DNA from: Amphiscolops sp. MND2022
Lineage: Eukaryota
Assembly: GCA_964187785.1 (NCBI GenBank)
Contig: OZ076409.1
Location: 37,822,001-37,886,000 of the forward strand
DNA: 64,000 nucleotides
Direction of reading: 5' to 3'
Shown here: piece by piece, positions 1 to 32,309 of the stretch
Position numbering within the stretch: the stretch's first letter is position 1
Layout of the letters: each line of letters starts with the position of its first letter
Notes under the pieces: model-generated
Database searches by the model: none
Told to the model about the DNA's origin: nothing
Seen by the model: only the letters and a program-made list of their open reading frames with translations
Translations under genes and position numbers: made by a program

Positions 1-2420
1 CGAGCTAGCTACACCATCTGATATAGCTCAATTATCAACTTGGTTACTTTCAAAAGTCAAAATTTTTCAGAAGAGGGTACGGCCAGTGGGAAAACAATAA
101 AAACGTTCCATCAATCCTGCTAGGTCAGGAACAGAAAAATTTGCTCGGCTAAAATGCTGAAACATCGAAAAATTTAGCGATTTTTGTTGAAGAAACAACA
201 ATTTTGGCCTAGAAAACAAAAATTGGTGAGGGCGAAGCCTTGGGCGTGTGTTCCCAAGCTTTTAGATCGACCCAAAAACGTTGTACCCGAGCTTGGTAGT
301 ACAAAACATTACTGCCAAGACGTTTTTTACCCTTCCCCAATATAAATTGATAGTTTAACCCTTTACTTTCTTTTGTTATACATAAACCTGAGTAGAGGAC
401 CCCCTAGACCTGAGAGTTATAACATCAAAACTAATAATTGAAACAACCCCAGTCCCCTGAATAAAATTATTACACCTTGTTACGTTACGTTTAGAACTAT
501 CCCCAATATCTGGGAACCGAGAAATAAATAGTTACTAGGGAAAATACATATTTTTCACATTGTTCCCAGAGTGAAAAAAGTGTAACTTGAAAATTTTTTG
601 ACAGACCTTGTTTGGAACCTGCCAGGTTTTGCTTGCCTATTTTCTGTTAGTATAGAGTAAAACGTTGCTAACGCAGAAAATTGCGAGTAATTCCAACCAG
701 TGGTTGCCGAGAAATAGCCAAAAACGTGCTGTTTTAGTGACAATATCGGGACATTGGTGTCTGCTCCCAGAGCAGGTCGAAATCTCTCCTAGTAGGAGCA
801 ACCCAAATCGAATTGCACCATCGTGTAGACCACAAAAAGTTACGCTAGTGGTGTAGTTTTCTATGCGCTAGCATTACTAGTTATTGAGAAAACTTAGCCG
901 CAGTTTTGCCTCAAAAGTGTACGAAATTGTTGAAAAAATTGAATTTTAGTTGAGCATAGTGCAATACCTTCGGAGTACCCCAGCACTAAAATTATTGCAA
1001 TTTCGTACATAAGGCACTCGATCCCGACGATTTGTGCATTTTGAGCAGCTTGCTTTTGTCCAACTTGGAGAAATTGACAATTTTGTGAATTTTGACCCCA
1101 AAAAGTGAACTAAAGGGTACATCACAATTTTGTCAACTCGGATTGCCGAATATTGACCTGGGCACCCCGCTATATTGTTTTTCTGTTAGGCGGGCATAGT
1201 TTACGCTCGCATACAAAATTTCAGGTAACTAGGACGCCTAGAAGCCGCGTTTGACCAATTTTTGTGAATTTCACGACGTAGTCAAATTTTCTGTGAACAT
1301 TGTTAAGTGACCGTAACACCCACAGAGTCAATTTCTTTGCAATCGGCAACAATTTTCCCACGATTTGACCACAGTAGTATACCGTGTTAAATTTGCAGGT
1401 CGCAACTAGCTCTAGAAGTGATTTTCACCTTTCCCAGGCGTGCATATTGGCGAAAAAATTGCCGAATCACACAGTTTTCGTAGGTGTAGTAGCAAGTGAA
1501 GGCTCAAACAACCCTATTTCTACTCTAGCCACCCATGGCACGTCTCGTTGAAGCACTTTAAAATGAGCTAAGTCAACCCTTAGATCTTGGGTTCATTAGA
1601 AAACCGTCTACGAGACGTAGAAGCGAAAAACACCAAAATCGTGTTTTCTCTACCAACAACCACTAAAGTCACCTAAGTGCGAACTGATAGTTGCAGCCAC
1701 GCTTACTTCGACTGAGAAGCAACGTGTGAGAGCTAGAACGCATTTAAGAGTTCTCTAGGAGACTTAGACTTTGGACGCGGTGCGTCTCGAAACAGAACAT
1801 CAAGTGTAATAGCAATTAAAAGTGTTAAGAACTGTGTTTCCCTTGATCGCGCTACGATCAGATTTGTACAACTCTCTTGTTTGCCAGTGTTCTAGCACCT
1901 ACTCACCCCCAAGATCTATTACCAGAATCCCCTTTTTGTAGTAACACCACTTGTGCTCTCCTACTAGAGGGCAGTGCGAGTGTCATAGTGTACGCTGAAG
2001 GAGTAAAGTGCGGCGATTTCTTGAATAAATCCCCGTAAAGCTCTGTTAGCGTGCCAAAACTTTTCTATTCATTCCAAGCGCATAGCTTGTGGCTGGAGAA
2101 AGTGTTGTTAAGTGTGAGTTCGTATAGCAACCTTAAGTAGTACTTCAAAAAAAACTTTAATTTTTGTTATTCGTAGAATAACTGTCTCCAGTTAGTGGGA
2201 AAGCAAACCTTTCTGTTCTAATTAGTGGTGGTTAGCACCAGCACCAGTGCCTGTAATCTGAAGATTGTAGTTTGTAAGCCAACTTCATTCAACTCAGAAC
2301 ATAGTAGGCAATTACGAGCTGCAAGCTCCAGAACCTAGTGGTCCCATAGTTTAGTTTGCATAATAGTGAGGGAGTACATCAAAAACTTCAGTTTAGACTT
2401 TATAAGAGAAAGAGTCAGTA

Positions 2421-4723
2421 TTGGGAGAAGCTAAAGCCCTATTCAAAAGCTGGGTTACTAGAGGAAACAGTGGTCAGAGCAGTCAATCGAGCATGAACTC
2501 TGGCGAGATTGAGCATCTGAAGTCTTGGAATGAATCGAATAGGCAGACGAATAGCTTCCACGTTACGAATCCATTTGCAAGCGATGTAGAGGAGTTGTCT
2601 AGGCTTAGTGCACGTGCTGAGATAGCAGCGGAAAACATGATTGCAAGTAGGTTGTTATGCTATGTCATGTCGGATAATGTGCCTATCGCTAATCAAAACT
2701 CGCAAATGGCATAATTCAGCCAACTAAACTCATCTCGAGCATCTTCGGATAGCGCTAACTTTGTAAGTGGCACTGCCATGAACTGTGGTAGCGTCTGGCC
2801 TCCCATGAATAACTCTGCGATTGATTGAGGAGATTGGCCAAATTCGAATGGAGAACAAGATACCAGCTTGGACATCAGCAAATGGGTAGAGAACATGAAT
2901 GCAGGCATGGCCTTCGAAAAGATTACACCACAGGTGAGTCTGGATGTGGACCCGCTGGGTTCCGGAGTTCCAGTGTTTGCTGCTAATAGAAACGCCGTTG
3001 CTGACACCGCAAGTACTCCTTCAGGAAACCAGCTGGGAAAGCGGGAGACAGTAAAAGAGGTAAACCTCCAGAACTATACCTTTACCACATCACCTCTGCT
3101 AGGTCATAACACCTTCCAACTAGAAAGCACGGCCATTTCTCAATATGCAGGCTCAGATAGCAGAGCGTCCCCAAGCTCGGCCATTACTGGAGGCATCAAG
3201 GAAACTGAAGTCACTAGGGAAGACTCGGGACGGAGCATGGCACAGTTGAAACAAGTCCAAGCCCAGTTAGTTCAAGAGAATGGTGACCATGCTCAGCGAG
3301 CTGAAGTCTTAATGAAGGAAATGGACGAACTCAGAAGAGGAGTGATTCAAATGAAGGTGGAAGAGCGCATCAATTAGGACAAAATGGAAACGTCAATGGC
3401 ATCTGTCAAGGGTCTAACTGAAAAGCGCATATCGGAAATGACGGCGATAATGGCGCAAAGAGACCAACAAGCCGATGAACGACTGAAGTTTATATCCGAA
3501 ACGATGCATCACAGAAACATAGATGTCGACAAGCGCATGGTGGACCTCATAACTACAGTTCAAAGATTTACTCTACGGGAAAAGCTGTAGTGGCAACGGT
3601 ACCAAGTCGTCCTTCACCTGTGCCGGTGGCACTAAACGCTGCGAACGTACCATCCACAAGTGCATTTTCAACCCAGCCACTCACAAAAAGAGAAGTAGTT
3701 CAGCGCCAGAGCGGGGCGAAGCCCGATCAAAGAAATTTGAATCCAGAAACAGTAGAAGAGGCTGCAAAAGGCAATACGCTGAACACAATACATGAGCAAG
3801 CGTTAGCCGAAGCAATAACAACCGCGATGTCCAAAGGTTTGGAACCATTGCTAGCAGCAAAAGAAGCCAAAAATATACCAACCAAATACCGCGGTACGCG
3901 CGACGGGATAATAGATGGTTGGCTAATGCTCATGAAACGTTATTTGGAGAAAGGACACGCAAAAGATACTCCATTGGACAGAGCATGGACCATCGTGGAA
4001 TTCCTAGAGAATGAGGCACAAGATTATATAACAAACAAGTCAGAGGCCGAACTTGACACGGATGAGAAAGTCTTCGCGCTATTAGCGCGGCGATTTGGAA
4101 CGGGATCTAGTAAGATCCAAATACAGCAGCAGTTCCGAACGCGCAATCAGTCCAACGATGAAGATTACATGCAATACCTTGACGCACTTGAAAGTTTGCG
4201 CAGCCAAGGTTTTCCTAACGAAGAAGCTACTCTAAGGCGCTACGAAATCATGCAGAGATTCATCGAAGGGGTTCGCAGCTTTGAGTTGAAGCGAAATCTC
4301 GCACTCATGTACGCACAAGAACAGTACGTGGATACACCTCCAACAGTGGAAGCACTACGGTTCACGGTACAACAATACTTGCACATGCGCGGCCCTATCC
4401 GCTCTGAGAACTATCCAGCGCCTCAGCAACAGCCTTTACTTGCAAGCCAACAAAACCCGATACCGGCAGCGGCTCCTCAAGCGCCTAATGTGCAGCTTAC
4501 TCCACAGCCTGTGGCTGTTCGACAGCAACCACCTAGGGCATGTTTCAATTGTGGCGACCCGTCACATTTTGTCCCCGATTGCCCCTTGAAAGATCGTGCA
4601 CGCAAACCAGTGCAACAACTAGTTAATTCGTGTCAAACGAACCCAGCTGGTGAATGGACTTGTCCTTCTAACCCTCATGGCATGAATAACTACGTTGTGC
4701 CTGCATTTTCCGCATTTTCCTAG
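2421..4723 (+). pseudogene. gag: gag: low-complexity/coiled-coil N-terminus, capsid region, CCHC zinc knuckle; in-frame stops and one frameshift
   Basis: ORFs at 2421, 2868 and 3384 share one frame; 3590-4723 contains KYRGTRDG..WL capsid-like start, QQFRTRNQ..E..Y major-homology-like motif and CFNCGDPSHFVPDC. Confidence 0.88.
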
Positions 4724-5354
4724 AGATGACGAGACCAAGCTAGCGCAAATACAGAAGGTCAAAACAATCGCGCCAGTCCCCATAGCAATCACGGTTGATG
4801 GTGTCGACATGAGATTCGATGCGATTGTTGTCCTGGAAGGACACTTTCTACGAGGCCTGTACTTGGGCAGGCAAGAACTGCGCTATTATAACATCGGAGT
4901 GCAGGATGCACATGAAGAGGCCCAGATTGATGAGCGAGCCTCGCTAGTGGTTGCATTCAGAACTCCTTTGCAAAAACCGATACCACTCTTAGGCAGGATA
5001 GACACCGGTTCGCGAGTCTCTATTCTCTCACTTAGCGTGTACAGGAAAATTGCATCCCAGCATGAGCTGAGCCTGTCACTATATGACCTTGAACTCTTCG
5101 CTGCCAATGGCAAGAACATCACCACCGTTGGCATTGTCGAGGATGTAAGCTTTCAGCTTGGCGGACATACTCTGAAGACCAACTTCGTAGTCATAGCAGA
5201 CCACATTGGTTCAGAGGACTTTCTCTTGGGTCGAAACTTCTTGCGCACATACAACGTGTTGCTGGACCTGGCTGCCATGAAAGTAACCATCCTAGACCCG
5301 ACAACGCCTAGGATCTTCAAAGCAGTTCACGAAGTCAGTGACCAAGAGCCATAA
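4695..5354 (+). pseudogene. pol: Retropepsin-type aspartic protease region
   Basis: IDTGSRVSIL catalytic motif and FLLGRNFL C-terminal motif; an extra LYLGRQEL motif lies upstream. Confidence 0.88.
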
Positions 5355-5899
5355 ATTGTTGTTTCTGCAGAGGAGGTTACTTTAGGGCCTTTCGAACGAA
5401 AAGTTGTGCGCGCAAAGATCATAACACAACAGCCAGATGAATTTCACTTTCGTAATGTAATGGTTCACACATGTAGCATGAAGTCCAATTCGGTATTTGT
5501 TTCAGAAGATACACTAACTTCCGTGGGAGATTACGGTGTAGTTTTCTTAGCCCTAAGAAGCCAAACTGCTAAAGAAGTGTTCAGAATCAAAGAACAAACT
5601 GTAGTTGGAAAAGCGGTGCTCACCAATTTTGTGTTCAATCCCGTTCCCATTCAAGACAGTCGTGAAGCTTCGAAGCTTTCAGCTGAATTTGTGAATCAAG
5701 TGCACAGAGACTTAGATTTGGACACCAGTTCAGAATTCAGTTCCTTTGCACAGAACTTTTTGTCTTCAACTGTACCGTCAGACATAGATCTATCGGAAAA
5801 CGGAAAACGCAAAAGGACAGATCCACAACTGCTGAAGCCAATCCCAGGCCCTGATATCTCTTCCGTCCTTTCTTCTTGGGGGGAAGAGGCGAGCGTTAA

Positions 5900-7350
5900 A
5901 TGAAAAATAAATCCGACATAGGACGATGCAAATCAGCAAAACACCGCATAGAGCTAGAGCCAGAGGCTATACCATACAGAGAAGGGGCAAGGCGCATGTC
6001 CGACATTTCTTGAAAACCCACGTAATGTAATCGATGTGAAGAATCCACACCACACTGCAACAGATCTGTTGCAGTCAAAAGTTCACTGCTTGGCGTCGTA
6101 ATGTCTCCCGACAAAGCAGCCAAAGCAAACCAAGAAGTACATAATTTGTTAGCTTTAGGTTTGGTTCAACCCTCTTACTCGCCGTGGGCTAGTGGGATTG
6201 TCATGGTGAAAAAAAAATCAGGCGAGCTTCGCTTTTGCTGTGACTTCCGCCCGCTGAATGATGTAACAATGAGAGATGCGTTTCCATTGCTCAGGATCGA
6301 TGAAAGTCTTTCAAGGATCGCGAACGCAAAAATCTTCACTAGCATTGATCTAGCGTGGGCCTTTTGGCAGATTCCGGTGAAGAAGCGTGATCGCAGAAAA
6401 ACTGCGTTCGCGTGTGAGCTTGGCCTGTTCGAATGGCGGCGCATGCCTTTTGGGCTATGCAATGCCTCGGCCACATTTCAGCGATCTATCACGAGAGCTC
6501 TTCAGAAGATTTAACAACGATATGGAAGTGTTGTCATGGCCTATATTGACGAGATAGTGATTGCGACGGAAACTATTGAAGATCACTTGGAAAGAATCAG
6601 AGAAGTATTCGAGTGTCTCAGAGAGGCAGGTTTCAAGATGCGAGCCGAGAAGTGTGATTTCGTGCGCACCGAAACCAAATACCTCGGAAGAGTAGTCTCA
6701 GCCGAAGGCATAAAACCAGACCAGACTGCTGTTAGCAAAATCCAAGAATGGATGCCCCCGAGAAATAAAAAAGAACTTCAAAGCTTCCTCGGATTTGCGA
6801 ATTACAACCGAGATTTCATTCCTTTTCACGCCGCTAAGGTGCAACCTATGCAGGAGTTGTTAAGGAAGAATCAACACTTCCAGTGGAAAGAAAAACATCA
6901 AGAAGCATTTGATTCTTTGAAACAGGCATTAGTCGATGCCACAACTTTGGCAGCGCCAAACGAAGACGGACGTTTTGTTTTGGACACAGATGCCAGTGCA
7001 GTTGCTGTAGCCGGTATCCTACACCAGGACCAAGAATACAATGGGAAGACCGTTCTACGTCCCATCGGTTATGGTAGCAAGTCACTAACGCGAACACAAC
7101 TGAATTATGGTGCCCCGAAATTGGAGATGTATGAGTTTTCTATTTTATCGAAAATTCCATTCGTACCTTGCAGGTCGGGAGTTCACGCTGCGTGTGGATA
7201 ACCAGGCTCTCTCGTGGCTGAAGACATATTCAATGGATCAGGCCATGATTGGACGCTGGATTGCGCGTCTCGACTAGTACCACTTCAAGACGATCCACAG
7301 ACCACGCACGCAACACAGAAATGCAGACGGTCTCAGCAAAAAAACCAATG
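5900..7350 (+). pseudogene. pol: Reverse transcriptase and RNase H, disrupted
   Basis: SPWASGIVMVKKK..RFCCDFR.LN, IDLAWAFWQI, MPFGLCNASATFQ, YIDEI (YxDD mutated), LQSFLGFANY, DTDAS, NYGAPKLEM, HRPRTQHRNADGLSK; stop at 6512, frameshift near 7135, insertion at 6001-6100. Confidence 0.95.
6001..6100. mobile_element. 100-bp insertion in pol with ATGTC target duplication
   Basis: ATGTC at 5996-6000 and 6101-6105; removing the insert restores GARRMSPDKAAKA; internal 22-bp palindrome at 6054-6075. Confidence 0.75.
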
Positions 7351-7714
7351 ACTATATGCATCGGGAGAAGATTGTGGAAACTTTACCAGAAGTGAGCAAG
7401 GGTTTCAGTTTCATGTCCCAGAAAGACTATGAAGATCTTCCCACTGTGCCATATATCGACAAACATGGAAAATTCATTCCAAACCACCCAAAACTCCCTC
7501 CTGAAGCTAGAGAACAACTCCCTGTGCTCTATATTTTGAAGAGACCGAAAGAGGACTCAACCTCAGAGCACTCCTTGAGCTCCATACCGTGGTACCCACA
7601 GGTACAATGGGAAACAACCCCGATATCAACTGAAGACGATAGACCGATTTGTATCCTTAGCATAACAACCAAAGTGCCGCCGGCACGTCTCGACACCACT
7701 AAACGCGACCTGCG

Positions 7715-9106
7715 TTGCGGAGATTGCCAACGCAGTGTCAAGAACAAGCTGATGTCCTCAGGTTATTCGGAACTGAGCTTCACGAGCATCAGTCGACAAT
7801 GCGTGGATTGAAGGATCTACATTTAGCTCAAAACAGAGACGTACACCTTCTAGCGCTGAAGAAACTCATGAAGAAGCAGCCATTGGAAGACTCCTTGTTC
7901 CCCGAGGACGTGCAGGACTTTGCCAAACGGTACTTCCATCAAAAGAAAGACCTCCTGTTCCTGAATCAAAATGACATCCTGTGTGTCAACTATATTCCGC
8001 ACCAACGCGCGATGCACGTACGACCGTGTATGATTGTCATGCCCCAGCTGTACCAACACGAAATTTTGTATAGAGCGCATGATGAATCGAGACACCAAGG
8101 TGTTGGCAAAGTGTTGGCAAGGATCCAGGAGCGCCACACTTGGCCAGGCATCAAGCGTGATGTCGTCAATCATATTAAGCACTGCTTAACGTGCCAACAG
8201 ACGAAACATCCCGCTGGGAATCCCTGTTACCCTTTACAAAGTATCAACAGCAACAATTTCAGTGACCTGGTGCAGTTTGACCATTTGAAGCTGTGCAAGA
8301 CAACGTCAGGAAACATTGGACTGCTAGTCATCATCGACCATTTCACCAAGTTTGCGGAGGCAATCCCTTGTGCGCATGATGAGTATGATGCACAGACAAC
8401 TGCAAAGATCATCTTGAATAAATGGTTTGCAAGACATGGTACTCCTGCCAGGATGCAGTCTGACAATGCCACAAATTTCACTGCCCAAATTGCACAGGAA
8501 CTGATGAAAGCCTCGCAAGTAACCAAGGTGACGTCTACTCCAGCTCACCCGAGAGGCAATGGTTTAGTAGAACGTCAAAACCGAACGTTGCTCACCTTGC
8601 TCAGAGTCTATACGTCACGCAGGATGTCAGATTGGGATGAGCACATACCCGGAGTCTTGGGTGCCTACAATTCAGCCAGACACGCTACAACCGAATTTTC
8701 TCCGTACATGCTCCAACATGGCGCAGAAAAATCCATTCAGCTCTCGTTCATATATCCAGAATTCGCAGCGCGAGAGTTTGAGTCCAAGGAAGAATTCGTA
8801 GAGCACGTACTCGCTAGACAACAAGAAATCCACGAGCTTGTTCATCGAAACACTCATCAGGCGCAAGTACGACAAAAACAGAAGTTTGACAGGCATTTGA
8901 AAGCAAAAGCTCACGCCGTGGGTGATGCTGTGTGGGTTTTCTGTCACATAATTCCCAAGGGTGGTACCCGTAAACTTCTTCGGGCCTGGCGTGGACCTCA
9001 CATGATCACGGATGTATTACAAGATGGACGACTATACGTGTTAGACCCAGGCCAAAAAGGTCAATTTGAGCGCTTGAAGAAGCATATGCCTGCACCCTGG
9101 GATTAG
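7715..9106 (+). CDS. pol: Gypsy integrase (HHCC plus DDE core), open over 463 codons
   Basis: H..RHQG..WPGI..C..C zinc finger; QFDH, QSDNATNF, NGLVERQNRTL catalytic motifs; WRGPH (GPY/F-like) motif. Confidence 0.95.
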   Translation: MRRLPTQCQEQADVLRLFGTELHEHQSTMRGLKDLHLAQNRDVHLLALKKLMKKQPLEDSLFPEDVQDFAKRYFHQKKDLLFLNQNDILCVNYIPHQRAMHVRPCMIVMPQLYQHEILYRAHDESRHQGVGKVLARIQERHTWPGIKRDVVNHIKHCLTCQQTKHPAGNPCYPLQSINSNNFSDLVQFDHLKLCKTTSGNIGLLVIIDHFTKFAEAIPCAHDEYDAQTTAKIILNKWFARHGTPARMQSDNATNFTAQIAQELMKASQVTKVTSTPAHPRGNGLVERQNRTLLTLLRVYTSRRMSDWDEHIPGVLGAYNSARHATTEFSPYMLQHGAEKSIQLSFIYPEFAAREFESKEEFVEHVLARQQEIHELVHRNTHQAQVRQKQKFDRHLKAKAHAVGDAVWVFCHIIPKGGTRKLLRAWRGPHMITDVLQDGRLYVLDPGQKGQFERLKKHMPAPWD

Positions 9107-11408
9107 CACATCAACCCTTTGGGTTGGATCAGAATGTAGCCATCATCGCCGATCCGTACGTAGAAGAAAGCAATGAGGAAAGAACATCTGACATATCGCG
9201 TGACTCATTCCTTCCAGAACAACTGCCGGAGGCATCATTCGAAATGGAACCAACCGCGCCTGTCCCACCGCTCACGATTCACACACGTACTCAGTCTGCT
9301 TTGGAACGAGGAATCACACGTAGACGATTCAGTCAGTTGGATATATGTCTGAGTCAGAATCTGACCGAGAACCAGTGGATCCCCTTATTGAAGAAGCACA
9401 GCAACCAGTAGTTTTTCCTGACATTGATGATCTAGAACCATTGTTCTCTGATCAGAAAGAAGTCTTGCCTGAACCAGCACCTAGTCTGATGCCCCCACCA
9501 TCAGGAACGTCAGCACCACTACTATCGAACCCAGTTTAAACCGATACATTGAGTAACTTTCCACTGTTCAGTCCTCGAGCTGGTAGCTCGGTAGGACTAG
9601 AACTTGTCGAGGAAGCCGAGCCCCAACAAGGAACTGACAGGGAAATTCAAGAACAAGGTCAAAGCATAAAAACATTACCGACATCAGGGAAAACTACAAG
9701 TGGAAGAGGCAGACCAAGAGGTAGACCTCCAGGGCGTAGAACAGCAAGCACCACTTCATCAAGCAGAGCACTTACAAGAATGAAAAGACCATACACTCGA
9801 TCGAGAGGCCGAATCAGAAGTAGAGCTCGGTCTAGAACATTGGAACGAGCAATGACACTGCCAGACATAGCAGAAAGCATGTCACCAGAGCAGCGAGAAA
9901 CAAAGCAGCCATCTCTTTCACAGGCCCCGCCTTATCAGCTACGACGTAACAGAGCACCACGCTACAGGTGTGAAACCTGCGGTTCCCGCAACTGTAGTTG
10001 CGTCAACCTAGTTGAAGTGAGGACACCGGACAAGCGATTGGCCCGGGGAGTGGACGCTCCTGCTCATGACTCAGCCGACACCGAAACGTCCGAAGACCAT
10101 CTACAGCATACAATTCGGTCCATAAAGTCAAAGGACCAGGTTGTTCCACAAGTGTATCATGTTGTAATAACAATAGAAAAGACATACTCGAGCATTGGAC
10201 CAGGTGTGGTCCCACCATTGGAAACCACACTCAATGCTATGCAAGGAACATCGCCCCCAGACTGTCCCACCTATCATTTCAAGGAGTGGACGCGGTACGA
10301 CAAGAGTGGATTAGAATTTACAATAACCGCTATTATTCCCCCACTCCCACCATCGATGGTGTTTGGAGAAACAGAGCCAGAAGACACAAATATAGCAATG
10401 GTACGCTGTATCATCGCGCAGAAGCTATGGCAACAATATGGTGTGACCTCCCCTCCTGGAGACGTATATCACCCAACGGCAGGTTGGTGGCTACTAATCA
10501 CCTCCTTGGACGAAACATCACCAGTGACACCAGGAACTCTATTGATTTGTTTAGAGAACTTGCGTACACTATTAGAGTTCGAGGACACACTTTGTTTCCA
10601 TCTAGCAGACATCTATCGCGGAAAATTCCTTAGTCAACATTGGTTACAGCTACTAGCTATCACTTTCTGTCGGCAAGCCAAAATACGCCTCTTGGACAAA
10701 TACACGTATACGTTCGAGAACCCAGTGACCGTGCTTGAAGCACTCTCCGTAGTCCATGATTGGTCCTGCACGAACGTGGGAGACAGACCTTTACGCAGAA
10801 CAGTGTGGCAAGACCGTAAAACCATTCTGGATCATCTCACACCAAGGCAGGACAATCAAAGCACTGTCACGGGAAAACTGTTGACAACGCACCCGAAAGT
10901 CAAGCCGAACTACCTACCATGGAAAACCTGTGATGAAACCGATATATTGCAAACGCGTGGTACCGTGGTAATATGCTGTCCGGCAGATCTGCTGTCATAT
11001 TCAGCAATGGCGCGTTATGTAATCCGGGAATATGGCCAAGAGGAGATTTTCCGACTACGACCAGCTGTAGGAAAAGCCATTCATCTCGTCAAGTCACATA
11101 AAGCCCCATGAAATAATGACATGTTCCTATTATTCACGAGAGCCTCCAACAAACAACCCATGCTACATGATGTGCTACATCTGTGCCTGATTGATCTGGT
11201 ACAGAAACTCGCGTAAGCCCACATCACCCAAGTTCACCTTCCTATCTATGATCCTGAAAGGTCGATCAACATACTACCAGCTTGGTATTCCATGTTGAGA
11301 GATCATTTCATCGACTCAGACATTGACATAGTTCTCCATGATAGGGTCTATGTGTCAATCGCATCAGTCAACGCATATGGCAGCAACACGAAGCACAAAT
11401 TGGATTGA
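9107..11408 (+). pseudogene. Post-integrase extension: acidic linker, AT-hook, Cys cluster, two putative TARG1/OARD1-like macrodomains
   Basis: ORFs 9124, 9345 and 9549-11111; the last frame reads on through TGA (11109) and TAA (11214) to TGA 11406-11408; contains GRGRPRGRPP, CETCGSRNCSC and VVICCPAD...FLLFTR...VHLP...W..MLRDHFIDSDIDIVLH. Confidence 0.65.
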
Positions 11409-13876: not shown

Positions 13877-14573
13877 GTGTAACGTCCAGCAAACGTTGCA
13901 AAATTTCGTTCAAGAAGCAGAAAGTGCGCGAGTCAATATGGCCGACCTTGCAGGTCTTTGAAATCGAAAAGAGAGACAAAAAAATGACACAAAAAAGACA
14001 CAGATCCCCGATAGCGAAGAATAGGGTACCAGAAGGACTTTCAGAGGACCGAAAGTAGCGGTTTGTGTCGTCTTACCGAGAACAATGCCTCTGAAGACAA
14101 GAAAAAGGCATAGAACCCATCGATGGCTTATCCCAGAAACTCGAAAAACTAGATGAAGAAGCCAAATATGCAATTTCTTGTTTATTTCCTGTTTGTTATT
14201 AATGGAAATTTGCAAATTATTGATGGTGCTGGATCTACTAGATCCACTTTATCCCTGTTATTTACATTATTCTGCAAATTAATGTACTGTAACAGAAACC
14301 CCTGTTTTGGACCTCGGAGGTATGTAGGTACACGCAGGAACCTTAGGATACGTTTTTACGTGCTTGTGGGACGTGTCCAGACTTTGAGTGTGCCGGCACG
14401 TCGCCACGGAGCTTTAAAATGAGGAGTCTCCACGACGTCTTGGAAAAGTCCCTACTGAGACCTTTACTGGGACCAAAAACTGATGTTTAGGTTGTTATAA
14501 GACACTGGTCTCTTGTTGAGGCAACCTGGGCATTGTCCCGGTTCTAGAATTTAGCTGTTAGCTTGACGTTACA
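13877..14573 (+). repeat. 3' LTR of E1 (697 bp)
   Basis: TGTAACGTC...GACGTTACA termini; follows the PPT; block-wise similarity to the E2 LTRs. Confidence 0.9.
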
Positions 14574-15555
14574 ATGGCTTAAGGACCCGACAGCGATCGA
14601 TGGTGAGAGTGGAGGATTATTCGTAGTGATTGTGAGTTCACTTCCCTTTGTTTCAGACCGTGTTCACTGCTTAAAATGGTAGGTGAAGTGGTTTGAAGAA
14701 GATCTACTGTGGTAGAATGACGCCACGATTTTACTATTCACGTCTTTTCTGCCAGATTTTTGGCTTTCATACTTTTTTTGGCTATGATATTCGATTGGTA
14801 TGGGAAAACCTCAACTTGTAGGTGATTGAATACGCACGAGCACGATTCATCTCTGCCTGGTACTGACGGGGCCAATCCATGATACGGTGTTTTCACCTCA
14901 ACGTGATTAATGCAATGACCGTTGCGAAACCACATGTTCTACATCCATAGAGATGCGCTCGATTGTGTCTCAATTGATTGTAAGCTTGAAATGCGGTAGT
15001 CACTCCATCAGAAAGAAGTTCTGAAAACGTGCTTGATAGAAACATTTTCGATGCTGGACATTTCAATACCTTCGCTAAATAGTAGTAGCTCCACTATGTC
15101 GTTTCAGAATGTATTGGTGTCTTGGAAGCAACTGGATGCATGGTTGAGCCTGTCTCTGGACGTGAAAAACTTTGATGGGTGCTCAAGTCCATAAAAATTC
15201 TCTCAATTATAACATACTGAACGGGAGAAAACTGTTTCTTGCACTAACCGCACTTGTATTCCCTTCCACTTACCAACTCCTTTCCACCAACGAATCAAGA
15301 GTACATAAACTACAAGATAATAATGAGACAACTCAAAAAATTGTCATTGTTTTTACAAACTAAGAGTAAATTTTTTTGTGTCAGTCTCAAATATAGGTGC
15401 CGTGGCGTAGTTGGGGAATGATCCGAAACAATCAATCTAAACTACGATTACAATGGCTTTGAATGTCAAACCAAACTTTGAAGACAAAAAAAACATCTAA
15501 AGTTGGTTTCCACTAAAGTTCAATTTGTTTCCACTCGGGAATTCGTGTACTCAGT

Positions 15556-15905: not shown

Positions 15906-16118
15906 AAAGGGGGGACCCTTTAGTCTCGTCCGGTACTGTATGTTACGCGGAAAAACAGGAAAAACTTTTTTGGTTTAGTTCGCTAGGCCAAATGGTTCAA
16001 TTTCACACCATAATTTTTCGTAGAACTTTTGTAGAACCAATTTGATCAGTTCGTGTGGATTGGAAAAAAAGAGTCACTATATTAGTCGCGTTTCACTTCA
16101 TGAAGCGCCGATTAAAAA
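15906..16118 (-). mobile_element. Helentron/DINE-1-like non-autonomous element, 5' part
   Basis: Reverse complement of the repeat at 23143-23320; ends in GCGCCGATTAAAAA, matching the family 5' end TTTTTAGTCGGCGC. Confidence 0.65.
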
Positions 16119-17899
16119 CGATCCAGGACAATCAAGAATGTTTTCCTACACCAGCTCTTCAGAGGGCCGGAAAGTATAAAAACATTTGGAAATAAATTAT
16201 GAATAATAACCCATTGTGATTGCCAGAAAAACGGATCCAGTTTTAAACAAACATCATAATTCAGAGCTGGAAACGTGCTAGGGTTGCCGAAACAGGAAAC
16301 TTTGGTCTCAAAGAAACCTGAACATCACTTTGAGGGACTTTTCGTGTGAATAAGAGGCTGTTCTTTACATTGTTTACGAGTCCAAGGACAAGCAGGTAAA
16401 ATAACTTCCCCGGGTTCCTGGGTGATGCTATGAAAAATGTAACGGCAAGCTTTCACCATTGCCGCTGCTCAATCATAGAGATGGAGGAACCTATGACATG
16501 GGTATTTGCCCTGGACAGGCTCCCACAGCCATCGGCCCATTTTGCCTCCTGGAGTAAAAGTTGTCAATTAAGGAGGGGGTCGTCGTCTCTTAAGGAGCCC
16601 TCGCCAGCTTGGTCCAATCTTTACTTGCTGTCAGTAACGTGAATTACGCTTTGTCTTCGAAACTACCGCTTAGACAGCCTTTTAAAAACGTTCCAAAAGG
16701 AAATATAAATGTAAAATTCGTTTTTCATGGTGACTTGGGGAATAAGATCTAAAAGTAGCCATAAAATCACAACAAAATGCAACGATCTCGTCAATAACAA
16801 ATCTTTGGCAAGGTCCACATTCAGCTCGCAAGCTGGGACCCCACAGGCACAGATTTGTGACTTAGACGGAAAGACTCATCTTTACGGTTTTCGCTATTCA
16901 AGGTAGCACACTGCTGAAATCAAGGTTAGCACATGTAGAAGAACCTATTTTCAGAGGTTTTTGCAGTCTCTGGTGTCTGTTGTGGCGGCTCCCTTTTTGT
17001 TTTTGCTCGATCTTGCTCTTTGTTCTCGAAGTACCTGCCAATTCCGTAGAAGCAGCGAAAAGAGTAATCACATGCTCAGTGCCACGTCAAGCATTGAAAT
17101 AGAATTTCTCACGAAAGATCTTCAATCGCAACATCTTTGTATTTGGACATTAGAGGGTATCGTTCAACCTTTTTTACTCTCTAAATGGTACCCTTTTGGA
17201 ATTTTTTGTTTTTACAGTATACAAAAAAATCGCAGAGCCACCGCGCTTCAAAAAAATTTTGGACATGTCGAAAGTCTAAATTCCAATATCGACTGAATCT
17301 GCTGTACCAGAGGGTGTCGTTACAATTTTTATTGAGGTCTCAAAATGTGAGTTAGGCAAAATTCATTACCTTAAACGAGATACATAAGCTCGGCTAGAAC
17401 ATACATTTACAAAAACCTGCAAATCCTAAGTGGATGCAGTCTTTTCTCGTCTTCTCTGCAATTTTTCCAGCAAACTGTTGCTACTCTCCGCGAAACTTGG
17501 ATCTACTGAACATTCCATACAGTGTTTGAAGCAAACCAATTTACTTGATTTTTTGGATTAGGTCGTCCAATTTCTTCATTCTTGCAGTTATTGAGTGCAT
17601 CGGGATGTGCTCTGGATTCTGTGGTTTGGTATAGGATAGTTTTTGTTGTATGATTACTTTTTGCTTTTTCCGAGCTGACTTTGGACACGTGCCAAACTCC
17701 AAGGTTACGTCGAATTGCTAATCTTTACGTTGCAGGTTTTGAACCAGCTTTTGGTCCCCACGCTGGTTGACTTTACAATCGACAATGGAAACTATACGCC
17801 ATCCAAAAATTATTTATGGTTAATTTATGACAGAAACGTTTTCAAATATTGGTCATTCCCTGAACTAAACCTAATAAATAGTTTCATAGTTGGAATGGC

Positions 17900-20849: not shown

Positions 20850-22450
20850 ATTCAACAACCTTTCAGCACACAAGTGAAAAATCCGATGTGAAATTCAACA
20901 ACGATATTTGATTCAGCGAATAGGAAGTCATGACTATATGTAAAGATCTGAAACAAAAATAAGAGTAAAGGACCTGATGGCCTACCTCCTTTGCTTTTCA
21001 AGAAAATATGTCTTTTTTTCCCACACTCTCTATGCCAACTCAATCGAAAAAGTTTACAAACAGGCATTTTCCCGGATCTTTGGAACGACGCTGTTGTTAT
21101 TCCTATATTCAAAAAAGGTAACAAATTACACGTCACAAACTACAGGCCAGTTTCTCCATTGATCATTCTTCTAAAATCTTCGAACATATTCTCTCTAAAA
21201 AATTATACAAGCAATGTGGTGAATACCTTCGTGTGTCTCAGTATGGTTTCAGAAAAAAGTCTCCCACCCAATATTCAGTTGATTACGTTTCACCAAAATG
21301 TTTACAATGGAATTGTGTCTCAACAAGAAATCGACATAATGTTTACAGGTTTCTTTATAGACTTCGACAGACCCCATCATGGTACATTACTACAAAAATT
21401 ACATGATTTAGGTGTACGTGAGAATCAATTCGAAGTTTTGAAAACTTACCTCTCTGGTCGCTCGCAAAGAGTTAGGTTAGATAACGAGCTGTCAAAAGAG
21501 ATCCCGGTAACAAGTGGCGTTCCGCAAGGCAGTATACTCCGTCCACTGTTTTCCTGATCTTCATCAACGACCTGCAAGGAAAATGTGAACAAATTTTTCT
21601 TTGTTCTTCGCGGACGATGCAAAATTTTTAGGTATTGGCTTTTCTCAAAAATGGCACAAAAGGACACAGATGTACTGCTGGAGTGGACTAAATGAAGTAA
21701 ATTGCCCTTTGATATGGATAAATGCAACCACATGGAAATTGGTGAAATTCAAAAACAATTCAAGTTTGGAGACGAACTATTACACAGGGTGTCAGTTCAA
21801 TCTGACTTGGGCCTAATGATCTCAAAAGATTTGAAATGGAATCTACACCTAGACAAAGCCTGCTCGAAAGCTATCAGAGTCTTTCACATGATCAAACGCA
21901 ACGTATCAAATCTCAATACGGAAGCAAAATTAAACCTATATAAATTATGTGCGGTGCCGGTCATCTTACATGGGTGCCCATGCTATGGAATGAGCAAATA
22001 TGTAATATCTGAACTATAAAATGTCCAAGGAAGAGTCGTAACTGGATTAATTTGGGAATTAAATCTTACAAACAACGCAATAATCTCTATCAATTTTACC
22101 CTTACCTAGGTACATCCAGATCAACAATATTCTACTTTCTAAAAAGCTACCAGGTCTAAAATTGCATACGCCTCTACAATGTTAAAAAGTACTATGTACT
22201 CAAGTTTCTGCCGCCAAAGTTTGTCTCAGCTGAAAAGACCGAACAGAAAGATACTGGAGGAAGATTACTTCTTTCAAACATGCAGACTAGCAGACTCCCT
22301 AAAATTGACCTACTCAACCAGATCGACCTTAAGAACACGCTAATAAACTTCTTCTGGAGTAACTTCAAAATTTACGACGAAAGATTCAATTGCTCGTGGA
22401 GACTAGACTAGCATATGATTGTACGCTAAACAATTGCAGAAGCAAGATGT
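20850..22450 (+). pseudogene. LINE reverse transcriptase remnant
   Basis: GIFPDLWNDAVVIPIFKKGNK..NYRPVS; YLSGRSQRV; GVPQGS; FADDAK; DLGLMISKDLKW. Confidence 0.92.
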
Positions 22451-26810: not shown

Positions 26811-27521
26811 TGTAACGTCCACCACTCAGCACCAAATTTTCGATGAAAAATTCGATCAAGAACCAGAAAGTGTGCGAGTCAAAATGGCCGACCTGGCAGG
26901 TCGTTGAAACAAAAAAGAGAGAGAGAGAGCACGCAAAAAAAGAGCAAGAGAAGAAAGGAACCAGAAAGCAGAGCGACTATTGACGTGAAGATTCGCACAG
27001 AGCCGAATGTGACGAGTGCTACCCGGTGTTATGTCATCCCTCTGGGAGAGAATGCAAAACCGTTCCAGAAGGACATGACTGGATTCCCGAAAACCTACAA
27101 ACAGTAACTGTACTCCCTTTTGGGGCTCGTCCCCCTTAATTTGTTGATTCGTAATATATTTTTCTGTTTCGCTTATGCCAGACCTTCTAGGTCAGCACAT
27201 CATGTCCCTAACTGTCAAAATGGTATTTTTTGGATAAACATTTTTTGGACCTCGGAAGTATGTAGGAAGTCGTAGGAAGGCTTAGGATTGTGTAGGAACG
27301 TTTTTACAGGCTTGTGGGGCGTGTCCGGACTTTGAGAGTGCCGGCACGTCGCCTCGGAGCTCTAACTAGAGGAGTCTCCTTAGACGTTAGAAAAGTCCCC
27401 CATGGAGACCATTTTGGGAGAAAAGCCAGTGTCTAGGAGTGTAGTAAGACAACGGTCTCCTGTTTAAGCACCCTAGACATTGTCCCACTTCCGGGATGTG
27501 CGCCGCTAGCCGGACGTTACA
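26811..27521 (+). repeat. 5' LTR of E2 (711 bp)
   Basis: TGTAACGTCC...GGACGTTACA. Confidence 0.96.
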
Positions 27522-27537
27522 TCTGGAATAGTTTTTA

Positions 27538-27555
27538 TGGCGACCACAGAGGGAT
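27538..27555 (+). promoter_or_regulatory. Putative primer-binding site, resembling the complement of a tRNA-Arg 3' end
   Basis: TGGCGACCACAGAGGGAT, 16 nt after the 5' LTR. Confidence 0.6.
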
Positions 27556-30304
27556 ATTTTTCCTTACCGCGTCCTGCGAGGAGCAACTCCTGCTTTCCGG
27601 CCCTGTAAGGTCCGGATCTAGGAGAAGCTTTTGGGAGGGTCCTAGATTGTTTTTACTGCTTTTTTCTAGCCCTTTGGGCCTCGTGTTAGTGTTTTTCCTG
27701 CGTTTCCTGCATGTTTCCGATGTCCCCAGCCTGAAAAAGACAGTTTGAAACAGTGTACCCCCTTGCACCTTATCTGTACTTGTTAAAAGAGCTATTCCGG
27801 CCTATCCGGAACGTGTTTTAACGGGTTTTCCAGCTTCTTTTCAGCTAATTGGCAATGTACAGGGACTGCGAGGACGGTTCGTGAAGACCCGAGCTAGCTG
27901 AGTGCAGGACTACAAGTGCTTCACGTCATAGCCTCTTCCTCCCCACCTGGTGCCGATTCACTGAAGACAGCTGGGTTATTTCGTTCCCTTTACGTTTTCT
28001 AGCCCAAAATTAGTATTCCCAGGCCTGTTTTTGCATAAACTAACTGAGAAAAATACCCACAGGGTGTTTGCATCAATTATTTTAAAGTTTGAGCTCGAAA
28101 ACATCGAAAATAACACTAATAATAGCTCAAATATCGAATTTTCCCGTTTTGGAAGCCAGAATTTTGTAGAATTGTATACGGCCTATGGGAATACCTGAAA
28201 AACGTTCTGTCAGACCTACCAGGTCGAGAACAAAATTTTTGTTGGGCTGATTTTTCGAAAAACATGAAAAATTCAGCAATTTTTGTTTAAAAATCGGCAA
28301 AATTGGCCATTTTGACCAGTTTTAGTAAGGGCGAAGCCTTGGGCGTTTGTTCCCAAGCCTCTTGAAAGGCCCAAAAATTTTGTTGTTGAGCTTGGTAGTA
28401 CGCAATACTACTACCAAGACGGTTTTTGATTGCCCCCATTATAAATTGAAGTTTTAACATCACTTTTCTTTCATTAAAATAGACCTGAGTGAAGGACCCC
28501 CATAGACCTGAGAGTTATTGAAATCAAATTAATTATTGCAACTACCCCAGCCCCCTGAATAAAGTTATTACGTGTCCTAACTCTACTAATAAAACCAAAC
28601 GGAACACCAGAGAACCAAAAAAACATCGGATTATTGACGAAAACACGTATTTCCAGTACTGTTCCGAGGGTGTAAAAAGTGCAATCGAGAAATTTTGTGA
28701 GAGACCTTGTTTGAAACCTACCAGGTTTTGCTTGCCTATTTCCAGTTAATAGAGAGCGTAACGTTGCAAACGCCGAAAACCGCAAGCAATTCTGAGCAGT
28801 GGTTGTTGAGAAATAGTCGAAAACGCACAATTTTTGCGTCAATTTCGGAATTCGGCAACCTCGTATTTTCAACAAGTCGAAATGTGTCCTAACAGGAAGA
28901 GCTAAAAACAGATTGCACAATCGTGTAGAGCGCAAAAAGTTACGCTAGTAGCGTGATTTTGATAGCCCTACTGTGAATACCCGCAGAGATAACTCAGCCG
29001 CAGTTTTGTTCAGAAAGTGTACCAAATTGCCGAAAAATCGAAAATTTGATTGAGCCTGGTGTGATATCTCCGGGATATCCCGGCACCCTAATTTTCCTAT
29101 TTTCGTCCTCGGGGTACCAAATCCCGACGATTTGTGCAATTTGAGCAGCCGACTACCAGCCGAAGCTGAGAAATTGACATTTTTGTGATTTTTGACCCGA
29201 AGAAGTGGTACCTCTGGTACATGAAGGTTTTGTCACTTCGGACCGCCCGATATTGATCCAGGCACCTCGCCGCCAAATTTTTCTGTTGCGTAAGCATAAG
29301 TTACGCTCGCATGCGAAATTTCAGGTAGCTGGGACGTCTAGGACGCGAGTTACACCACTTTTTGCGAATTTCACGACATGGTCAATTTTTCGGTAAACAT
29401 TGTTAAGTGGCCGTAACACCCATTGGGTCACTTTTGGCGCAATCGGAGAAAAATTCCCCACGATTTAGCCAGTATAATACCCAGTGTGAAATTTTCAGGT
29501 CGCTAGCAGCACTAGAAGTGATTTTCACCTTCCCCGGAGGTGTTACTTGACGAGAAAAACAGCGTTTCGGGCGAATTTTGACTGAAAACCCGCGCACTTC
29601 TAGTCCTGACGTGCCTCACTCAGGGCTGAAACGACCTGTTTAGCGCATCAAGCAAATCCCACACGGCTCACTGAACTTACAAAATCCGCGTAAGGTTGGC
29701 CCCAAGACCAGCGACCTCCCACTAAACACTCTACGAGACTAAGAGACGGTAACCCTGAAAACCGAAATTCGTTTCTTGCCCGCCACCAAAGTCGCCCAGG
29801 TGCAATTTGCTCGTCATAACCACATATACTCTGCGCCTCGTGTACCCTGAGGGTGCGAGAGTGTGCCCGGGAGCACCAAAGTAGTCACAGACCAGGTCTG
29901 CGGGACGCGTAGAGAAAGTAGAACAAGTACACAAGAGACCACCCATATCGTTGTAAACACTTTTACCCACGAGCCGTGAGGCTATAGACCAGAGTACCAC
30001 TCAATACTCAACCCCCACATTCCCAATCAATCCCCAGATCATTCCCCGTCCATTGCCCATCCATTGTTCCCGAATCAACCTCGTCGTACAAGCGTATAAA
30101 ACAACCTAAAGTGACCCCCACTGCGCCCTGCGCGGGGGATACAATAAGAAATCTCCGCCGACGAGTTTGAAGCTAACCCAATAGTTTTCAGTTAACGGTA
30201 GCAACAAGGCTTGCGGTCACCTAAAAGTAGAAGTCAACTTAGCGTGTAGTAATTTGTAGTGGTGATCGCCAAAAAAAATCAAAAAAAAATAAAAAAAAAT
30301 TTTT

Positions 30305-31000
30305 TTGCTAAGAAAGCCAAACCTTCTCCTAAGTGAGGGAAAAGCAAACGAACATTCAGTTAAACCAACCAGCGATAGTGTGCCTAGTGCACTCCGAGAG
30401 TGCAGGAAGGACCTGCCCGTGAGCAAAGACGTTCCCAGTAACCCGCGCATTGCGCTAGAGATATTCGTGCGCCTGCATGGTCTCCAGCGAGAACAGACTC
30501 GAGCTGTAGGCGAACAGTACGCTAGGGGAATACAAACATTTAAGCAGCTATTCACCCAGCATGGTCATCAAGAACTGGCGGACGGACTGCCAAACCTGGA
30601 GCCAACCGAAGCTATCCCGGGAACTAGCGGGTTGGGCGAAGCTGCCTCTGGCAGCCCCCAGACCGTCCCTCCCACATCACACCTCATTCAAGACACCGAT
30701 GAGTCATTGATGGAAGGGGTACAAGACGATATCTCAAACGTCATGCCACCATCAGAGGAGCCCATGACCGACAATAATTTCACACTCTCTGATGCCGCTA
30801 CCCCTGTAAGAGACGAAGTGGAGACTAGTATCTCAAACATGGAGGCGGCGGACATAGAGTCGGAGATTAACAACCTACTGACTATGGATGAGGAATCATC
30901 GCCCCCCTCCGAGGCGCCCGATTCGGCCGTCCAAAATGCAGTGAACACCATGGCCAGCACTTCCACGCAGGAAGCCCCACAAGATCAGCTGTTGGGATAA
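30305..31000 (+). CDS. Orphan ORF of E2: helical N-terminal part and acidic, Ser/Pro-rich tail
   Basis: 231 open codons with higher GC than the flanks, at the position where E1 has gag; first in-frame ATG only near 30710. Confidence 0.5.
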   Translation: MLRKPNLLLSEGKANEHSVKPTSDSVPSALRECRKDLPVSKDVPSNPRIALEIFVRLHGLQREQTRAVGEQYARGIQTFKQLFTQHGHQELADGLPNLEPTEAIPGTSGLGEAASGSPQTVPPTSHLIQDTDESLMEGVQDDISNVMPPSEEPMTDNNFTLSDAATPVRDEVETSISNMEAADIESEINNLLTMDEESSPPSEAPDSAVQNAVNTMASTSTQEAPQDQLLG

Positions 31001-31595
31001 AGGAGTCCTCTGGACCCTCCAACACCACTGGAATACTGTAAAGCACAGAAGACCTTATTGTCAAAACATTGGTGCAAACTTTTGGTTTTAGTTATGCTAC
31101 GCTATCTCACTGGTGCTGAAAACTTTCGGTGCAATAAAGTTTGATTTCAAAATTTTTTGTTTGATATTTACTTTACTATGCTACCAATGCAACAATACGA
31201 TATCGCTACGTCCTCTGGGCGGGTCCCGGTTCGGTACCCTCCCGTTTCGATTTGAATTTAAAATTTCTACTAAGCCCAAAAGCTGTTGTTACTCACCTGG
31301 CCGCGCAGGGGCCCAATTTTAGAAAAAGAAATTTTAACTTGGACTGAGTAATTAGTGAAAAAGTTTCTTCTTTTTTTAAAGAGCCGACTGTAGAGTTTTT
31401 AACCTCGAAACTAGTGCTTTTTGAATTTGATGGCTTTGGAATGCTAAACATGCAGTAACGAAACGAAAAGAATAGTAATGTGAGATCAATTTAGTTCAGC
31501 TCTAATGTAAAAATTTTTGTGTAAATCTCAGAGTACCCTTTGGGTGCGAACATCCTCTCGTTTGCCGAGGACGACAAACTACGGCCCGGGGAGGA

Positions 31596-32309
31596 TGTAA
31601 CGTCCACCACTCAGCACCAAATTTTCGATGAAAAATTCGATCAAGAACCAGAAAGTGTGCGAGTCAAAATGGCCGACCTGGCAGGTCGTTGAAACAAAAA
31701 AAAAGAGAGAGAGAGAGCACGCAAAAAAAGAGCAAGAGAAGAAAGGAACCAGAAAGCAGAGCGACTATTGACGTGAAGATTCGCACAGAGCCGAATGTGA
31801 CGAGTGCTGCCCGGTGTTATGTCATCCCTCTGGGAGAGAATGCAAAACCGTTCCAGAAGGACATGACTGGATTCCCGAAAACCTACAAACAGTAACTGTA
31901 CTCCCTTTTGGGGCTCGTCCCCCTTAATTTGTTGATTCGTAATATATTTTTCTGTTTCGCTTATGCCAGACCTTCTAGGTCAGCACTTCATGTCCCTAAC
32001 TGTCAAAATGGTATTTTTTGGATAAACATTTTTTGGACCTCGGAAGTATGTAGGAAGTCGTAGGAAGGCTTAGGATTGTGTAGGAACGTTTTTACAGGCT
32101 TGTGGGGCGTGTCCGGACTTTGAGAGTGCCGGCACGTCGCCTCGGAGCTCTAACTAGAGGAGTCTCCTTAGACGTTAGAAAAGTCCCCCATGGAGACCAT
32201 TTTGGGAGAAAAGCCAGTGTCTAGGAGTGTAGTAAGACAACGGTCTCCTGTTTAAGCACCCTAGACATTGTCCCACTTCCGGGATGTGCGCCGCTAGCCG
32301 GACGTTACA
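31596..32309 (+). repeat. 3' LTR of E2 (714 bp)
   Basis: By eye it differs from the 5' LTR by a 3-nt A-tract extension and two substitutions; preceded by the PPT. Confidence 0.96.

Follow-up and report, generated by a model that had tools for sequence, protein, structure and literature searches.

A spacing-constrained retrotransposon leader with helical and 180-bp periods: a candidate nucleosome array encoded in DNA

A non-coding stretch that changes its bases freely while keeping its length almost to the nucleotide raises the question of what selection acts upon. The stretch considered here lies in a window of 64,000 nucleotides from Amphiscolops sp. MND2022, a region that holds two related Ty3/Gypsy-type elements: E1, a decayed autonomous element, and E2, a non-autonomous one (Table 1). 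With direct LTRs ending in TG...CA and the domain order protease, RT, RNase H and integrase after gag, E1 is a Ty3/Gypsy LTR retrotransposon. E2 (26811-32309, 5.5 kb) has two LTRs and lacks pol, and its sole frame, of 235 aa, is without a Pfam match; in its size (>4 kb), its two LTRs and the loss of internal coding it agrees with LARD-type elements. A GGGGAGG tract precedes the 3' LTR in both. Pfam searches with the polyprotein extensions and with the second ORF of F2, a further family introduced below, gave no match below E 0.09. The stretch itself is 5' untranslated leader, from +595 to +2030 behind the LTR end. The leader of E1 begins where its 5' LTR ends (L031 4428), 572 bp upstream of the window, and where a copy has an open frame, this starts about 3.0-3.1 kb behind the LTR.

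Table 1. Features of the two elements and of the leader (window positions, except where L031 is given).
Feature	Position	Strand	Remarks
E1 5' LTR	L031 3752-4428	+	outside the window, on its upstream side
E1 5' leader, part inside the window	1..1458	+	non-coding, spacing-constrained, ~180-bp units
E1 gag-pol	2829..9106	+	broken frame (stops, frameshifts); Gypsy domain order: zf-CCHC, protease, RT, RNase H, integrase
E1 polyprotein C-terminal extension	9540..11111	+	no Pfam match
E1 3' LTR	13878..14573	+	93% identity with E1 5' LTR; polypurine tract just before
E2 5' LTR	26811..27521	+	TG...CA ends
E2 PBS-like motif	27538..27555	+	TGGCG...; 16 nt 3' of the LTR end
E2 5' leader	27522..29558	+	homologous to the E1 leader, same units
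E2 3' LTR	31596..32309	+	99.3% identity with E2 5' LTR
Deepest conserved core	520..1120	+	colinear with F2 at +2/+3 bp, 40% identity
Core motif	808..856	+	imperfect inverted repeat around CAAAAAGTTACG; recognisable in F2
No-indel block	763..1458	+	199 substitutions against E2; 0 shared indels in 74 copies
Phased A/T-tract patches	140..1490	.	~10.4-bp phasing
Three local hairpins	195..319	+	195-227, 229-272 (including 239-258) and 292-319; best candidate for a local RNA element

BLASTN aligns E1 23-1458 with E2 28122-29558 at 72.3% identity. Under stiff gap costs the offset stays between 28097 and 28099 over E1 23-762, and E1 763-1458 forms a single ungapped block against E2 at offset 28100, with 497 of 696 positions identical. 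The preliminary description of this DNA had placed the offset within 28098-28100. It is near-constant as claimed, with dips to 28097 in two short blocks, and the value of 28100 given for about 780 to 1445 proves exact over the whole of 763-1458. Over E1 60-780, stiff gap costs leave 6-9 gaps of 1-2 bp per 199-207 mismatches; over E1 781-1445, cheap gap costs insert 23 gaps, which cancel to a net -1. The homology reported for 60..1445 is real, and those bounds are too narrow: it begins within the last third of the 5' LTR (L031 4161-6458 against 27243-29558, 70.6%) and runs to 1458. Counted from the LTR end, the constrained leader is about 2.0 kb long, and the next 340 bp, too, have few shared indels.

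The genome holds 662 exact matches to the core motif and 1,442 matches to the LTR-end pattern. Three autonomous families were found: F1, which is that of E1; F3, whose LTR and first 600 bp resemble those of E2; and F2, with an integrase 62% identical to that of E1. Related elements in other species stand at 53-74% integrase identity. A degenerate-motif search for further leader families returned one match, a copy of the same family, and a distant integrase (P0076) used as query led mostly to places in F2, with the closest family at 56% and no fourth family. The leaders are mosaics, in which segments have been swapped between subfamilies; between E1 620 and 1400 each 60-nt bin contains 2-8 allele groups, all of equal modal length. 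The autonomous families keep the leader constraint too, so that it is not peculiar to the non-autonomous element, which had first been said to need it.

F2 leaders give no BLASTN match to those of E1 or E2, and a profile search finds a colinear F2 leader match over 317 columns (E 1e-6). As the gapped profile alignment is too fragmented beyond the core, the comparison between the E1 group and F2 rests on a diagonal scan and on ungapped identity. From +1100 to +1700 behind the LTR end, the best diagonal among 161 offsets is +2/+3 in 10 of 11 windows; ungapped F2-E2 identity at +2 is 39.8% in this part and at background level outside it, while the other offsets tried give 25-30%. The distance to the LTR is kept as well. 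In a part of contig 1, 39 of 47 core-motif matches have an LTR end at most 6 kb upstream, and among these 25 lie at 1390-1416 bp, 6 at 1745-1768 bp and 8 elsewhere. In E1, E2, F1, F3 and unduplicated F2 copies the motif stands 1403-1411 bp behind the LTR end; these copies include an F2 variant with a 5' part that resembles other F2 at only about 60-65%. Across families, the leader keeps its register over about 600 bp and its distance from the LTR to within 3 bp. At +300 to +450, similarity to F2 is weak and stands at an offset of +44 to +45; given the offset of +2/+3 further on, the total length of the F2 leader seems to be restored downstream, a single coincidence that could be due to chance.

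The fate of indels can be followed in an alignment of 77 of 90 loci, from which seven tandem or near-duplicate copies and six repeats of loci already included were dropped. Similarity to E1/E2 was the basis for choosing 53 of the 77, which biases the sample towards few indels, and 24 were chosen by motif position alone. A change was counted as private when present in one copy and as shared when present in at least three, in four successive segments of 66-74 rows each. Private indels per substitution amount to 0.145, 0.140, 0.063 (25/395) and 0.170 in the four segments, and shared ones to 0.033, 0.021, 0/402 and 0.008 (Fisher p 1e-7 to 2e-11 for shared against private). With the same aligner, gaps per substitution in the 5' part of the LTR come to 22/137, 27/118, 11/82 and 15/78 in four divergent, intact-looking pairs (0.13-0.23); for two close pairs they are 0/3 and 3/35. 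In the leader from +1200 to +2030 they are 1/126, 3/234 and 2/222 in three divergent pairs of the E1/E2 group. An indel rate equal to that of the LTRs, which would speak against any constraint, therefore does not hold, shared leader indels being far below the LTR ratio. Small indels are removed in the lineages that go on spreading. The strong constraint on length and spacing inferred in the preliminary description is borne out by the ungapped E1/E2 block, the deficit of shared indels, the register in F2 and the fixed LTR distance.

The leaders also share a helical periodicity. In AA/TT/AT steps the 9.5-11.5-bp band stands at 2.4-5.0 times the flanking bands in five of six leaders (0/60 tract-keeping shuffles in each case) and at 1.69 in the sixth, where 4/60 shuffles exceed it. 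Its centroid lies at 10.4 bp, in line with the regularly spaced A/T tracts of phased DNA that had been listed as one option and a periodicity check suggested for it. The ratio is 1.1-1.3 in gag, pol, the 3' UTR and two further controls. The band is raised outside the leaders too, in one LTR (2.49), in the stretch behind the leader (1.58) and in one unrelated tile of the window (2.45). AA and TT steps are periodic in the leaders, and TA steps are depleted and without periodicity, a pattern nearer to bent A-tract DNA than to classical strong positioning sequences.

This 10.4-bp period is modulated at about 180 bp. The envelope of the 10-bp signal peaks at 178-182 bp in F1/F3 and, separately, in F2, and at 178-188 bp in all eight leaders (range scanned 90-400), which form two semi-independent groups only. 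In the 170-190 band, chosen after a 181-bp duplication had been seen, 0-6 of 200 shuffles exceed the leaders; for the maximum over the whole range, 0-51 of 200 do so per single sequence. One of nine controls, a tile of the integrase region, also peaks at 182 (3/200). The best two of 78 window tiles for the envelope signal both lie over the E1 leader. Mean 180-bp power relative to shuffles is 5.9x in six leaders, 0.8x in 26 non-leader tiles of the window and 1.1x in 18 coding tiles, and the 180-bp signal is absent from the host DNA tiles in the window. In E1 the envelope peaks near 171, 320, 549, 731, 922, 1092, 1260 and 1463 (fitted period 179-182 bp); with a fitted period of 179.25 bp, patch centres fall near E1 17, 196, 375, 555, 734, 913, 1092, 1272 and 1451. 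GC content is 0.37-0.41 in the patches against 0.44-0.47 in counter-phase, and A4/T4 tracts are about twice as many. A 147-bp coherence test did not tell dyad from linker and placed no dyad.

The duplications that have spread are of related size. A 181-bp tandem duplication is present in 26 of 30 F2 motif loci. A duplication of 360-365 bp occurs in seven loci selected for their motif distance; among 54 further LTR-end loci it is present in eight, in one of these decayed to lag 336. Its copies are 69-85% alike, and it is found in two different 5' backgrounds. Two loci of the F2 variant make up a ~720 class, with one block present three times at lags of 710-733. With a unit of ~180.3 bp, the three spreading duplications add 1, 2 and 4 units. 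The probability that three log-uniform sizes fit one period in 176-186 is 0.0011 when the third is taken as 720; this quantisation counts three events, with the ~720 class in only two loci and its lags spread over 23 bp. Private large indels (hand-listed, n=17), on the other hand, are scattered across the unit, and 1/17 comes to 5 bp or less from a multiple; among them is a duplication of 670 bp, its copies 74% identical, that looks old and is off-multiple. The ~180-bp unit and the unit-sized duplications lay beyond the reach of the preliminary description.

A nucleosome wraps 147 bp, repeats at roughly 165-200 bp and is associated with 10-bp phasing of A/T steps. An A/T dinucleotide periodicity of about 10 bp and a long period within the range of nucleosome repeats, as expected of an array, are both found in the leader, and the simplest structure having both periods is a phased nucleosome array. 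Taken together, the helical and nucleosome-sized periods, the purging of indels, the anchoring to the LTR and the duplication of whole units point to the integrated DNA rather than to the RNA. We consider it reasonably likely, from these sequence patterns, that the leader encodes in its sequence a nucleosome array anchored to the LTR, and that purifying selection maintains the register of this array. Such a leader would be built of ~180-bp units with one 10-bp-phased A/T-tract patch each, and its integrated DNA would serve as template for about 11 nucleosomes positioned in a row from the LTR. The 180-bp unit would presumably be the nucleosome repeat, and the A-tract-rich, GC-poor patches might perhaps represent linkers and nucleosome edges. 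A small indel would then throw all downstream units out of rotational and translational register; the duplication of a whole unit would leave the downstream register intact. Over 700 bp not a single 1-bp indel is tolerated, which is more strictness than one would usually expect nucleosome positioning to require. None of the models, in fact, clearly calls for it, and it is partly unexplained.

The array would probably keep the integrated copy transcribable. As for its purpose, it may, tentatively, shield the 5' LTR promoter from germ-line silencing, an idea argued by analogy with PATCs, or allow smooth elongation through the leader. The PATCs of Caenorhabditis elegans are described as non-coding clusters of An/Tn tracts, periodic at about 10 bp, with a proposed role against germ-line silencing (PMC4947018). 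It is conceivable, though we hold it with some doubt, that the elements carry their own chromatin blueprint, in which nucleosome positions anchored to the LTR would be fixed over 2 kb in single-base register, by selection that spans families with leaders too diverged to align, altered in whole-nucleosome steps, and would give a silencing-resistant state wherever the element is inserted. Such a blueprint could, with the same reservation, constitute a cis-acting anti-silencing device distinct from both protein-bound insulators and PATCs. To what extent the DNA of animals itself sets out nucleosome arrays, and whether this is under selection, is a long-standing open question, and it stays open because natural cases with a clear signal of selection are rare. 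Hundreds of copies with private and inherited mutations, together with variants of 1, 2 and 4 extra units, open this question to direct testing. An array that protected from silencing would be a new way for a mobile element to resist its host and a candidate part for transgene stabilisation.

The main rival to this array also acts at the DNA level, without nucleosomes, and has in our view a low though appreciable probability. The leader would be either a barrier of bent, PATC-like DNA from which nucleosomes are excluded, or a platform repeated in ~180-bp steps for a DNA-wrapping or DNA-bridging protein, encoded by the host or by the element. It takes this rank because PATCs are reported, in a recent preprint devoted to them, as nucleosome-depleted, and figure as anti-silencing barriers (10.64898/2026.08.08.743475; PMC4947018). 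The periodic AA and TT steps and the depleted, non-periodic TA steps of the leader are those of An/Tn clusters. A continuous bent tract, however, should bear indels of about 10 bp, and none is shared over E1 23-1430 in the copy alignment; neither does it need a 180-bp unit. The imperfect inverted repeats that return at a similar phase of the unit (-70 to -79) and the long regions of the polyprotein without a Pfam match also speak for this rival. No recurrent binding motif supports it, however: base-level autocorrelation at lag 181 has a z of only 2.6-2.9, and repeat finding in the leader, for tandem repeats or a recurring motif, gave only short two- or three-copy matches.

A large structured RNA, either a packaging or dimerisation signal or an IRES whose geometry sets the lengths, had been put forward in the preliminary description and seems unlikely. 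The leader follows the PBS, which is the site of retroviral packaging signals, and E2 needs such a signal. A weak pairing excess does exist on the sense strand, which folds better than dinucleotide shuffles (z -3.2 and -5.8); under tract-keeping shuffles, however, both strands score alike. The strongest consensus fold covers the hairpins at E1 120-320 (SCI 0.83, z -7.8). Two of these, at 239-258 and 292-319, had been noted as kept with variable loops, and both are present, although the loop of the first differs by one base only. Across copies neither has a common two-sided change; the common variants of the second (TA35/TG36, AT57/GT16) are G-U-compatible on the sense strand, and in the hairpin at 195-227 two-sided change affects four pairs, next to several mismatches.

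Comparison between families weakens the RNA explanation further. Among predicted pairs that have changed between families of the E1/E2 group, 26-49% are still paired (null 28-39%), with 4/12 tests of pair retention below p 0.05 on the sense strand (p 0.005-0.03) and 0/12 on the antisense strand. Helices of the E1/E2 group find 53-69 of 137 pairs in F2, against 50-52 when slid, the register being uncertain beyond E1 1050. Over the long region base pairs are not maintained across families by compensatory change, as would be expected of Psi/DIS or IRES RNA. A rigid global RNA fold of 1.4 kb finds no support, more than half of the changed pairs being broken and pairing in F2 being near background. 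Rfam returned one chance-level match only for L031 3700-7000. RNA loops usually absorb indels, moreover, and a structured RNA would leave the helical periodicity and the 180-bp steps unexplained. The hairpins at 195-319 may form a local RNA element, which could exist alongside a DNA-level array.

A passive pattern is very improbable. It would consist of an ancient 180-bp satellite, or of a nucleosomal mutation imprint behind the LTR promoter, combined with few indels made by reverse transcription and with duplications along residual repeats. Periodic mutation linked to chromatin is known downstream of start sites, and the weak self-similarity at lag 181 agrees with such an origin. It is largely refuted, however, by the counts of shared, private and LTR indels: the same lineages gain 0.13-0.23 indels per substitution in their LTRs. 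The private large indels of the leader are unquantised (1/17), and the LTR distance is constant across 5' parts that cannot be aligned. A hidden spliced or antisense gene, which the lack of indels at 71% identity might call to mind as it looks like coding DNA, deserves practically no credence, given 16-34 stops per frame (a shared long ORF is absent, as first claimed), mismatches of 69/59/71 by codon position in the ungapped E1/E2 block, a six-frame scan for the cryptic coding once thought worth checking whose best segment scores 11.9 against 8.3-18.7 in column-shuffled alignments, synonymous to non-synonymous counts flat at ~270:1000 in every leader frame, period-3 power that never rises above 2.3 in 90-nt windows across the leader, and 1 bp as the most frequent size of shared indels.

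Periodic anti-silencing DNA, nucleosome arrays organised by repeats, the gypsy insulator and LARDs are already known. Satellite monomers of nucleosome length and positioned nucleosomes on retroviral LTRs are known as well, and resemble the leader in a unit of about one nucleosome repeat and in phased A/T tracts. Unlike those of satellites, the units of the leader share almost no sequence, and their copy number shifts rarely and in whole units. The insulator of the Drosophila gypsy element lies in the 5' UTR and consists of an array of Su(Hw) repeats. The likeness is that of a Gypsy element with a cis element acting on chromatin at the DNA level, as that insulator is described (PMC4131230). The leader differs from it in having no tandem array of binding sites, in its length of 2 kb and in its periodicity.

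PATCs are closest to the leader in being non-coding, in their An/Tn clusters with a period of about 10 bp and in their link to transposons, as far as the descriptions in the two sources go (PMC4947018; 10.64898/2026.08.08.743475). The preprint's account has them arise from Helitron minisatellites after insertion, in host introns, and describes them as nucleosome-depleted; it also reports related periodic signatures in L1 ORF2, suggests that active L1 may retain such features for itself, and gives, in one figure legend, the overlap of PATCs with Gypsy annotations (10.64898/2026.08.08.743475). The leader shows the periodic An/Tn clusters and has no minisatellite unit, and so does not share the origin from Helitron minisatellites in host introns. 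It is, instead, an inherited part of an LTR element, has a second period of ~180 bp, is fixed in position relative to the LTR and is purged of 1-bp indels. In mammals, repeats that include LTR families have been tied to islands of regularly spaced nucleosomes; the arrays described in that source are phased by short motifs (CTCF, ZNF, microsatellites) rather than by a 2-kb element in which each unit is encoded and register is selected (10.64898/2026.09.30.755582). A literature search, whose coverage left out most subscription journals, found no LTR leader with base-exact register and nucleosome-sized duplications.

The internal domain of LARDs has a conserved RNA secondary structure. E2 resembles these elements, as they are portrayed in PMC4350172, in its 5.5 kb, its LTRs, the lack of pol and a conserved non-coding internal domain common to its autonomous partners. 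The leader departs from LARDs, and from Psi/DIS signals, in conserving spacing and helical phase more than base pairs, and in doing so in autonomous families as well. With regard to the RNA structure typical of LARDs, the leaders show the weak sense-strand excess, and most of their changed pairs break. Long retrotransposon leaders that are classed as packaging RNA may be constrained at the DNA level.

The leaders of the copies L062-L091, that is, the roughly 2-kb non-coding regions that start at the end of the 5' LTR, are mosaics in which alleles like those of the decayed autonomous Ty3/Gypsy element E1 and alleles like those of the non-autonomous element E2 alternate by 100-nt bin. Such changes from bin to bin suggest that the families often exchange segments by template switching. 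Leader-containing units are also found in recent tandem arrays, each at one locus, with periods of 2128, 4249, 2058, and 1074 bp. In addition, an inverted remote fragment (window 16109-16245, minus strand) matches the first 140 bp past the LTR end (E 2e-7).

The three elements checked (3/3) are flanked by target-site duplications of 3 bp, whereas LTR retrotransposons usually have longer ones of 4-6 bp. In all three autonomous families (F1, to which E1 belongs, F2, and F3), the PBS-like motif begins 15-17 nt past the LTR end, rather than 1-3 nt. This motif occurs in two variants, TGGCGCC and TGGCGACC, which may correspond to two primer tRNAs.

Copies with an open frame encode a single polyprotein of 3,000-3,300 aa, whose long N- and C-terminal parts gave no Pfam matches; the last part appears macrodomain-like by eye, and Pfam gave no confirmation of this. 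Elements of the families F2 and F3 carry a second long ORF downstream of pol, and E2 contains an acidic open frame; Pfam searches with the second ORF of F2 and with the E2 frame returned no match. The coordinates of these features are collected in the table.

Coordinates of features of E1, E2, and related copies (L-numbers, sequence stretches with genomic copies)
Feature	Detail	Position
E1 target-site duplication	ATG	L031 3749-3751 and window 14574-14576
E2 target-site duplication	TTG	window 26808-26810 and 32310-32312
Third element's target-site duplication	TTT	L093 647-649 with L094 5747-5749
PBS-like motif region		window 27522-27555; L031 4429-4462; L097-L109
Polyprotein of open-frame copy		L093 4395 to L094 3742
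E1 polyprotein, C-terminal part		window 9540-11111
F2 second ORF	1,430 aa	L110 4834-9123
F3 second ORF	at least 1,162 aa	L114 from 6515
E2 open frame	235 aa, acidic	window 30293-31000
Tandem arrays of leader-containing units		L043, L046, L047; L053, L054; L131, L132; L189

The integrase-region coding tile L094 1-1600, like the leader, has an envelope peak (the periodicity in strength of the 10-bp A/T-step signal) near 180-186 bp, and this peak is absent from the matching region of F2. The unrelated stretch at window 55000-57000 holds a 10-bp A/T band of 2.45 (0/60 shuffles), equal in strength to that of the leader, and a 180-bp modulation of this band was looked for there and is absent. Column conservation of the leader (E2 28120-29540, alignment columns) has an apparent peak at a period of about 29 nt, with a power of 16.

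E2 is inserted in the second copy of a tandem duplication of approximately 2.5-2.7 kb (window 21594-26811 and 32318-32534), whose copies are 91% identical.
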